A stretch of DNA of 64,000 nucleotides, from assembly GCF_002854065.1 (NCBI RefSeq), contig NZ_CP024154.1; one strand, given 5' to 3'. Position numbers: made by a program. Positions 54,001-57,000 of the stretch are shown one piece after another. Source of the stretch: Escherichia coli. Lineage in GTDB: Bacteria; Pseudomonadota; Gammaproteobacteria; Enterobacterales; Enterobacteriaceae. How positions within the stretch are numbered: the first letter of the stretch is position 1; each line of letters opens with the position of its first letter.

Positions 54001-57000
54001 TCTCCATCACCCGTGCCACCCGTGCCCTGAAGTTCCTGGCTGAGCTGGGGCTGATGACCTACCAGACGGAATACGACCCGACAATTGGCTGTAACATTCC
54101 GACCGACATCACGTTCACGCCGGCACTGTTTGCCTCACTCGATATCTCTGAAGAGGCGGTGGCTTCCGCACGCCGCAGCCGCGTGGAATGGGAAAACAAG
54201 CTGCGCAAAAAGCAGGGGCTGGATGCGCTGGGTATGGATGAACTGATAGCGAAAGCCTGGCGTTTTGTGCGCGAGCGTTTCCGCAGTTATCAGGCAGAGC
54301 TTAAGTCCCACGGCATGAAACGTGCCCGTGCGCGCCGCGATGCAGGCAGGACCCGTCAGGACATTGTCACCCTGGTGAAACGGCAGCTGACACGTGAAAT
54401 CGCGGAAGGGCGTTTCCGCGGAAGCCTGGAGGCCGTGAAGCGCGAAATCGACCGTCGCGTGAAGGAACGCATGATAATGTCGCGGAACAACAACTACACA
54501 CGGCTGGCCACTGCCTCACCCTGAGTTTGACCTCATCTGAATAATCCGGCCTGCGCCGGAGGCTTCCGCACGTCTGAAGCCCGGCGACGCACAAAAAAGC
54601 AGCACAGCACACAAAAAACAGCCTCATCATCTGCCTTCCGGCTCGCCTTGCTCCCCCTGTTTTTCACGCAAAACACGTCTCACAGACGGGGAATTCTGTT
54701 TATCCACATTTAACTGCAAGGGACTTCTCCGTAAGGTTACAACCGTTAATGCTATAAAGCGCCAGCCGCAGGCGTTACAGGGTGCAATGTTTCTTTTAAA
54801 CCCCAGTACTGTATTTCCTTTAAACTACTTAATTACTTCCATTTAAAAAAAAGACCTATTCAGTGCCTGTCCTGTGGACAGACAAATATGCACCTCCCAC
54901 GCTGACGCGCGGGCCCCGAACCTCACCGTTCTGAAACCACAGCAAAAAGACATCAGGAATAAAAACACCACACAAACGCAGCACCGTGCCCACCCCTCAT
55001 AACTGAAAAGCGAGGCCGCCCCCGCCCGAAGGGCGGGAACAACATCGCTTTTAATTATGAATGTTGTAACTACATTGTCATCGCTGTCAGTCTTCTGGCT
55101 GGAAGTCCTCAGTACACGCTCGTAAGCGGCCCTGACGGCCCGCTAACGCGGAGATACGCCCCGACTTCGGGTAAACCCTCGTCGGGACCACTCCGACCGC
55201 GCACAGAAGCTCTGTCATGGCTGAAAGCGGGTATGGCTTAGCAGGGCTGGGGATGGGTAAGGTGAAATCTATCAATCAGTACCGGCTGACGCCGGGCTTC
55301 GGCGGTTTTGTTTCTGTGCCATATGTAACAACGGAGTGCCGCCTTACATGCGCTGACGCGCATTATTTGCCTTGTTTCGTCTGAAAGTAATCACTATGAT
55401 TAAATATGATTAACAGCTAATCGGATATGCAAATGAAAAACAATACCGCACAGGCAACAAAAGTAATTACCGCGCATGTGCCATTACCTATGGCTGATAA
55501 AGTCGACCAGATGGCCGCCAGACTGGAACGCTCCCGGGGCTGGATTATCAAACAGGCGCTTTCTGCATGGCTTGCTCAGGAGGAGGAGCGTAATCGCCTG
55601 ACGCTGGAAGCCCTGGACGATGTGACATCCGGACAGGTTATCGACCATCAGGCTGTACAGGCCTGGGCGGACAGCCTCAGTACTGACAATCCGTTACCGG
55701 TGCCACGCTGATGGAACTGAAGTGGACCAGTAAGGCGCTTTCTGATTTGGCGCGGTTATATGATTTTCTGGTGCTGGCCAGTAAACCTGCGGCCGCCAGA
55801 ACGGTGCAATCCCTGACACAGGCACCGGTCATTCTGTTAACTCATCCACGTATGGGAGAACAGTTGTTTCAGTTTGAACCCAGGGAGGTCAGACGGATTT
55901 TTGCTGGCGAGTACGAAATCCGTTACGAACTTAATGGCCAGACTATTTATGTATTGCGCCTGTGGCACACACGAGAAAACAGGTAGATTGTGTGTGGGGA
56001 CAACTTAACATAGCCTGCAGATATTAATTCTGGAACATTATTATCAGGCCAGATATTTTTCATTCCATTAAATAATCTGGTAATGACTCCAACTTATTGA
56101 TAGTGTTTTATGTTCAGATAATGCCCGATGACTTTGTCATGCAGCTCCACCGATTTTGAGAACGACAGCGACTTCCGTCCCAGCCGTGCCAGGTGCTGCC
56201 TCAGATTCAGGTTATGCCGCTCAATTCGCTGCGTATATCGCTTGCTGATTACGTGCAGCTTTCCCTTCAGGCGGGATTCATACAGCGGCCAGCCATCCGT
56301 CATCCATATCACCACGTCAAAGGGTGACAGCAGGCTCATAAGACGCCCCAGCGTCGCCATAGTGCGTTCACCGAATACGTGCGCAACAACCGTCTTCCGG
56401 AGCCTGTCATACGCGTAAAACAGCCAGCGCTGGCGCGATTTAGCCCCGACGTATCCCCACTGTTCGTCCATTTCCGCGCAGACGATGACGTCACTGCCCG
56501 GCTGTATGCGCGAGGTTACCGACTGCGGCCTGAGTTTTTTAAGTGACGTAAAATCGTGTTGAGGCCAACGCCCATAATGCGGGCTGTTGCCCGGCATCCA
56601 ACGCCATTCATGGCCATATCAATGATTTTCTGGTGCGTACCGGGTTGAGAAGCGGTGTAAGTGAACTGCAGTTGCCATGTTTTACGGCAGTGAGAGCAGA
56701 GATAGCGCTGATGTCCGGCGGTGCTTTTGCCGTTACGCACCACCCCGTCAGTAGCTGAACAGGAGGGACAGCTGATAGAAACAGAAGCCACTGGAGCACC
56801 TCAAAAACACCATCATACACTAAATCAGTAAGTTGGCAGCATCACCAAATAATCTTGTAGGAGATAAAATGAATTACGATGAAATAACGAAAATTACCGC
56901 TGAACGTATTAGCGACTACATGACCGAAGCAGTTAATACAGACTCTATAGCCGTTGCGGAAATGTTTCATAACGCTGCCTGGGGAGTGCGAACATTGTGG

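Follow-up and report, generated by a model that had tools for sequence, protein, structure and literature searches.

We analysed a 64-kb stretch of the Escherichia coli contig NZ_CP024154.1 (64,000 nucleotides in all, hereafter the window), in which a complete IS1 lies in the spacer between a toxin–antitoxin gene pair and a small open reading frame encoding 93 residues (ORF93). The features of the locus are listed in Table 1. The two upstream genes encode a ribbon-helix-helix (RHH; CopG-type) antitoxin and a ParE/RelE-family toxin and have the arrangement of a ParE/RHH type II toxin–antitoxin system, being small, adjacent, and sharing base 55711. The spacer is AT-rich, with a GC content of 32% overall and 24% in the 51 bp around the target of the insertion. 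The start codon of ORF93 (56869–56871) is located 22 bp past the end of IS1, and its GC content contrasts with 52% for the window.

Table 1. Features of the locus, with positions in the window and the basis of each assignment
Feature	Position	Strand	Basis
Sigma-70-like site CTGAAA-18-TATGAT, presumed toxin–antitoxin operon promoter	55381..55410	+	promoter scan
RHH (CopG-type) antitoxin gene, first of the upstream same-strand unit	55427..55711	+	Pfam RHH_1 3.7e-11; annotation in relatives
ParE/RelE-family toxin gene; stop codon 92 bp before IS1	55711..55986	+	Pfam ParE_toxin 7.7e-17; annotation in relatives
Left copy of the 9-bp target-site duplication AAATAATCT	56070..56078	.	read from sequence
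Complete IS1, 768 bp	56079..56846	-	read from sequence
insB′ frame, catalytic part of the InsAB′ fusion transposase	56094..56597	-	ORF; Pfam DDE_Tnp_IS1 2.3e-78
insA, 91 aa	56516..56791	-	ORF; Pfam Zn_ribbon_InsA 1.3e-21, HTH_Tnp_IS1 4.7e-31
Inward IS1 promoter in IRL, CTGCCA-16-TATGAT	56812..56839	-	promoter scan
Best candidate outward fusion promoter, TTGGCA (-35), 17-bp spacer, TGTAGG (-10)	56833..56861	+	relaxed scan
Right copy of the 9-bp target-site duplication AAATAATCT	56847..56855	.	read from sequence
Shine-Dalgarno AGGAG of ORF93, intact after the insertion	56859..56863	+	read from sequence
ORF93, 93 aa, predicted three-helix bundle, 39% GC	56869..57150	+	ORF; homologues; AlphaFold2; dN/dS

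The sequence of the element is that of IS1A. Annotated IS1A copies, such as that of E. coli J53, were identical to it over the full length, and thousands of E. coli records contain copies labelled "IS1-like element IS1A family transposase" that likewise matched it at 100% from end to end. Both ends are exact and carry the imperfect terminal inverted repeats of ~23 bp (GGTGATGCTGCCAACTTACTGAT / GGTAATGACTCCAACTTATTGAT). The 5′ edge in the window is GGTAATGACTCCAACTTATTGAT (IRR, at 56079), and the 3′ edge is the reverse complement of GGTGATGCTGCCAACTTACTGAT (IRL, at 56846), which adjoins ORF93; insA is thus directed leftward, away from ORF93. The insA and insB′ frames overlap, with insB′ in the −1 frame, and the A6C slippery motif for frameshifting is intact (a T6 run on the plus strand at 56535–56540); identical IS1 copies carry the RefSeq annotation "programmed frameshift". 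The promoter scan recovered the inward site in IRL, which we take to be pIRL, the established driver of insA. Identity to the active IS1A implies that this copy would be competent for transposition. A BLAST search of the element against the window detected no second IS1 in the 64 kb.

To the right of ORF93, two minus-strand genes point toward it: an 89-aa ORF that matched no family (57341–57610) and a ProQ/FinO-family gene (57745–58347). Read-through from these genes would cross IRL into IS1 and proceed in the same sense as insA. Such read-through into IS1 can raise its transposition (PMC12428005).

The nonamer AAATAATCT stands on both sides of the element with exactly 768 bp in between; IS1 characteristically duplicates 9 bp, or occasionally 8 bp, of an AT-rich target. 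The 64 kb contain one further occurrence of the nonamer, at position 48484, and the chance of an identical 9-mer pair at exactly these two positions is ~4^-9. To reconstruct the empty site, we joined the flanks with a single copy of AAATAATCT after removal of IS1 and used the resulting 450-bp sequence as a query. Of the 2,846 plasmid records that it matched, 2,322 gave a contiguous match. The best matches were 100% identical and differed only by 59 additional bp, well away from the IS1 site. The empty site of S. sonnei p69 (NZ_CP099769.1; locus L001) reads ...TTCCATTAAATAATCTTGTAGGAGATAAAATG and contains the 9-mer once. The closest backbones to positions 45000–64000 of the window were CP054459, NZ_AP027793, and NZ_CP015141, which are ~82-kb IncK2/Z, MOBP, MPF_I conjugative plasmids of E. 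coli; they aligned at 99% identity with 96% of the query, the remaining 4% corresponding to IS1. A 4,224-bp IS1-free reconstruction aligned with pEC732_3 as one segment at 99.1% identity with a single small gap.

These comparisons bear on the origin of the junctions. Many related plasmids show one-sided IS1 junctions in the same spacer, and on that precedent the IS1 in the window could mark a rearrangement junction produced by deletion, inversion, cointegrate resolution, or IS1–IS1 recombination. However, both of its flanks are native, the 9-bp duplication is perfect, the window holds no second IS1, and deletion of IS1 with one repeat restores collinearity with IS1-free plasmids. The empty-site alignment refutes such an origin, to which we assign almost no probability. 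Because removal of IS1 and one repeat yields a sequence collinear with IS1-free plasmids, the data argue instead for a simple, clean transposition, and one confined, within the collections searched, to this plasmid lineage. Searches with 200 bp spanning the right junction gave no identical counterpart in PLSDB or among 5,426 complete E. coli genomes, and the exact 42-mer junction AAGTTGGCAGCATCACCAAATAATCTTGTAGGAGATAAAATG was absent from the GTDB species representatives. The lack of any database record with this exact junction supports a recent date, and the insertion is probably recent, with the proviso that the databases may not contain the source lineage. The preliminary description had reported an IS1 intact at both ends between identical 9-mers, had read it as a clean and probably recent transposition rather than a rearrangement junction, and had proposed a comparison with IS1-free relatives. 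That comparison, in which the flanks are otherwise identical around a single AAATAATCT, the nearest relatives lack IS1, and the junction is unique among the records searched, bears out its reading.

The extra 59 bp of the L001-type plasmids consist of a 50-bp remnant of an IS10 outside end and one repeat copy, and the same size difference was present in all of the best 30 empty-site matches. In S. sonnei p69, the remnant (CTGATGAATCCCCTAATGATTTT-TATC-AAAATCATTAGGGGATTCATCAG; L001 1585–1634) has 23-bp inverted arms around TATC and lies between 9-bp AACTTAACA repeats; its first 36 nt are the end of an annotated ISVsa5/IS10 in locus L020. The window has a single AACTTAACA at 56002–56010 and no IS10 remnant. 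From its sequence, the remnant looks like a scar of Tn10/IS10 "nearly precise excision", for which Foster and co-workers reportedly described the classic 50-bp Tn10 product in 1981; we take the remnant to match that product. The intact IS10 (ISVsa5) of L020 was considered as an occupant of the AACTTAACA site and rejected, as it sits further along, where pEC732_3 has yagA. In locus L016 (CP048936.1, ~533–1300), an IS1 variant of 96.7% identity lies inside the IS10 scar with its own 9-bp duplication GGGGATTCA; the locus preserves two different IS events, one nested within the other.

The spacer has been hit by IS1 repeatedly: at least 11 distinct junctions (that of the window and at least 10 others) lie within ~120 bp, in both orientations. 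With each junction in the retrieved loci given as the position of its first flanking base from the ORF93 ATG, IRL faced outward at −14 (L002, L003, and L008), −21 (L005), −22 (the window), −41 (L007), −57 (L015), −80 (L006), and −118 (L014), and IRR faced outward at −54 (L018), −109 (L017), and +1 (L019), as well as within the IS10 scar of L016. The IRR-outward ends were found by a reversed-IS1 junction query, and a strict orientation preference was rejected on this basis. Native flanks were kept on both sides only in the window, the L003 type, and L016, which are simple insertions with duplications. The junctions of L005, L006, L007, L008, L014, L015, L017, L018, and L019 are one-sided, with unrelated DNA beyond, and are rearrangement products. 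The foreign DNA beyond one-sided junctions includes tet(B)/tetR(B), an integron dfrA remnant, a colicin M gene, and an Hha gene, and resistance regions of IncF plasmids seem commonly to have a boundary in this spacer.

In the part of PMC9330008 that relays earlier work (Zerbib et al. 1985; Turlan & Chandler 1995), IS1 is described as preferring AT-rich regions and as tending to produce adjacent deletions, and the pattern of junctions in the spacer fits these two documented properties. It is unlikely that the clustering goes beyond the AT preference and reflects either repeated selection to uncouple or silence ORF93, or a DNA structure or protein-bound site that directs IS1. If the selection reading were true, ORF93 would be a costly or host-restricting backbone gene linked to toxin–antitoxin modules. 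The repeated IS1 hits in this spacer of IncF and I-complex plasmids help to explain why IncF resistance regions often begin here.

IncF plasmids also provided the closest parallel to the window. In the first search, dozens of them matched positions 55400–57139, IS1 included, as one piece at ~98% identity, as would be expected if the window carried an old inherited insertion, that is, the same IS1 that is widespread beside ORF93 in IncF resistance plasmids. The IncF (FII/FIA/FIB) resistance plasmids, such as NZ_CP033847.1, indeed share with the window the element, the spacer, the orientation with IRL toward ORF93, and a simple insertion with a 9-bp duplication. However, base-level alignment showed that their IS1 is offset by 8 bp toward the ATG and has a different duplication, TTGTAGGAG, which copies the Shine-Dalgarno sequence. 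ORF93 of the plasmids with the −14 insertion is 3′-truncated beside an IS481-family fragment, whereas that of the window is full length. IS1 is absent, moreover, from the plasmids whose backbones are closest to that of the window. Identity of the two insertions was rejected, and inheritance from a shared ancestor appears extremely improbable; the alignments indicate that the IncF IS1 represents an independent event. In L003 (3470–3926 of the retrieved locus; NZ_CP033847.1) and also in L014, the 3′ end of ORF93 is cut and similarity to the window stops at 57139, beside the IS481-family transposase fragment.

We then considered ORF93 itself. In relatives, including S. sonnei p69, it is annotated as the hypothetical protein WP_001105066.1, and its exact sequence falls in a cluster with 832 members. 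Homologues with identities as low as 60% were found in Escherichia, Salmonella, Citrobacter, Klebsiella, and Dickeya; their length remains 93 aa, motifs such as NAAW and LW are invariant, and pairwise dN/dS values were 0.13–0.29 at dS of ~0.9–1.2. The AlphaFold2 model is a three-helix bundle with a mean pLDDT of 95.3. No match was obtained with the Pfam, NCBIfam, PHROG, or PADLOC models, and a Foldseek search of the model against the PDB yielded only generic helical-bundle matches (best E 0.35). The database sources label the protein "hypothetical protein", and one label derives from an NR1 "stb locus" GenBank record. The conserved length, the dN/dS values, and the confident model identify ORF93 as a real conserved gene, in agreement with the small AT-rich gene ~22 bp downstream of IS1 that had been proposed. 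ORF93 of IncF plasmids is annotated by RefSeq as a 3′-truncated pseudogene, and the gene therefore appears dispensable.

In Dickeya sp. NCPPB 3274 (L009) and in Salmonella enterica contigs (L010–L012), ORF93 homologues again lie just downstream of toxin–antitoxin-like pairs of other families, Phd/YefM-like in Dickeya and HigB in Salmonella. In the Salmonella contigs (~90–97 kb), the homologues are located directly 5′ of CysRS-like and GlnRS/GluRS-like aminoacyl-tRNA synthetase genes. If these contigs are plasmids, such genes are unusual cargo.

To locate sites from which ORF93 could be transcribed, we used a consensus-based and thus crude promoter scan. The only plus-strand sigma-70-like site upstream of ORF93 was the presumed toxin–antitoxin operon promoter, which is also present in the empty-site relative S. 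sonnei p69. Both in the window and in the empty site, the standard scan called neither a sigma-70-like promoter nor a terminator between the toxin gene and ORF93, and a relaxed scan of the spacer gave only weak pairs scoring 3+5, such as TGCAGA-17-TATTAT upstream of the insertion point. Homologues of ORF93 belong to runs of small genes on one strand, and some share 4 bp with the gene preceding them. Because no promoter or terminator separates the genes and the homologues stand in such runs, ORF93 is likely to be co-transcribed with the toxin–antitoxin genes in IS1-free plasmids. IS1 stands between ORF93 and every candidate upstream promoter. The preliminary description had placed the insertion in the presumed promoter or 5′ untranslated region of ORF93; its position between the upstream genes and ORF93 holds, but the spacer has no recognisable promoter, and a transcript rather than a mapped promoter would be interrupted. 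Inside IS1, the plus strand contains one terminator-like hairpin (56706–56720), which does not exceed the chance expectation.

IS1 insertions are classically polar, and ORF93 expression would, with moderate probability, be reduced or abolished by this one. The opposite outcome, activation of ORF93 by a fusion promoter of the kind reported by Prentki et al. (1986), would combine an outward −35 in IRL with the flanking DNA. The IS1 inverted repeat carries such a −35 (PMC8764528), and IS1 fusion promoters have been documented (PMC9330008; PMC8764528). In the window, TTGGCA at 56833–56838, 8 bp from the IS1 end, matches five of the six −35 consensus positions, and the 17-bp spacer finishes exactly past the 9-bp duplication. 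However, IS1 raises expression only with a −10 at the right distance, expression being otherwise lowered or unchanged (PMC8764528), and spacings of 16–18 bp offer only TGTAGG, TTGTAG, and GTAGGA, none of which has A2 and T6. TGTAGG matches three of the six −10 positions, and the site failed the standard scan. Transcription starting ~7 nt past this −10 would begin at ~56868, beyond the Shine-Dalgarno sequence, and would produce a leaderless mRNA at best; the alternative TCACCA-17-TAAAAT combines a poor −35 with a predicted start within the ORF. The outward −35 of a fusion promoter was thus found, whereas a functional −10 with a start upstream of the ribosome-binding site was not. We judged the candidate fusion promoter to be weak or non-functional, and activation of ORF93 by IS1 to be improbable. 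Since the outward TTGGCA meets only a poor −10 and the start would fall past the ribosome-binding site, silencing or polarity is favoured over outward activation, the two outcomes between which the preliminary description had left the choice.

Taken together, we consider it very likely that a single copy of IS1A inserted by simple transposition and that ORF93 expression was likely lost or reduced as a result. The copy entered the AT-rich spacer between the ParE/RHH pair and ORF93 in the backbone of an IncK2/Z (I-complex) conjugative plasmid, and the InsAB′ transposase made its usual 9-bp staggered cut, duplicating AAATAATCT. ORF93 would normally be transcribed from upstream, by read-through from the toxin–antitoxin promoter, from a weak spacer promoter, or from both, and the 768-bp element would cut it off from this transcription. 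Through IS1 polarity, its expression would most likely be reduced or lost, although the insertion left both the coding sequence and the ribosome-binding site intact. Related plasmids often have a truncated ORF93 or one separated from its upstream genes, and for this reason the insertion is probably neutral or almost neutral.

The insertion may switch off a conserved backbone gene and is useful as a lineage marker for this plasmid; beyond annotation, it has little import. A movable IS1 added to a conjugative plasmid is also a possible seed for deletions, cointegrates, and the capture of resistance genes.

Finally, we compared the insertion with known systems. The IS1 fusion promoters at blaTEM-1 (Prentki et al. 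1986) and at acrEF and afaA in ST131 (PMC8764528; PMC9330008) likewise have the outward −35 of an IS1 end directly 5′ of an intact gene. In contrast to these promoters, the window lacks a usable −10 at the spacing needed, and transcription would be predicted to start past the ribosome-binding site. It thereby resembles osmB or ugd in PMC8764528, for which expression fell or was unchanged. With IS1A of E. coli K-12, the element shares the 768-bp sequence, terminal repeats, insA, insB′, and A6C site, together with an AT-rich target and a 9-bp duplication. The element is no different from that of K-12, and the insertion site alone is new with respect to PLSDB and the complete E. coli genomes. All testable characteristics of the IS1 family were present, and the insertion is a textbook one within known IS1 biology: a routine event that shows no departure from known IS1 behaviour.
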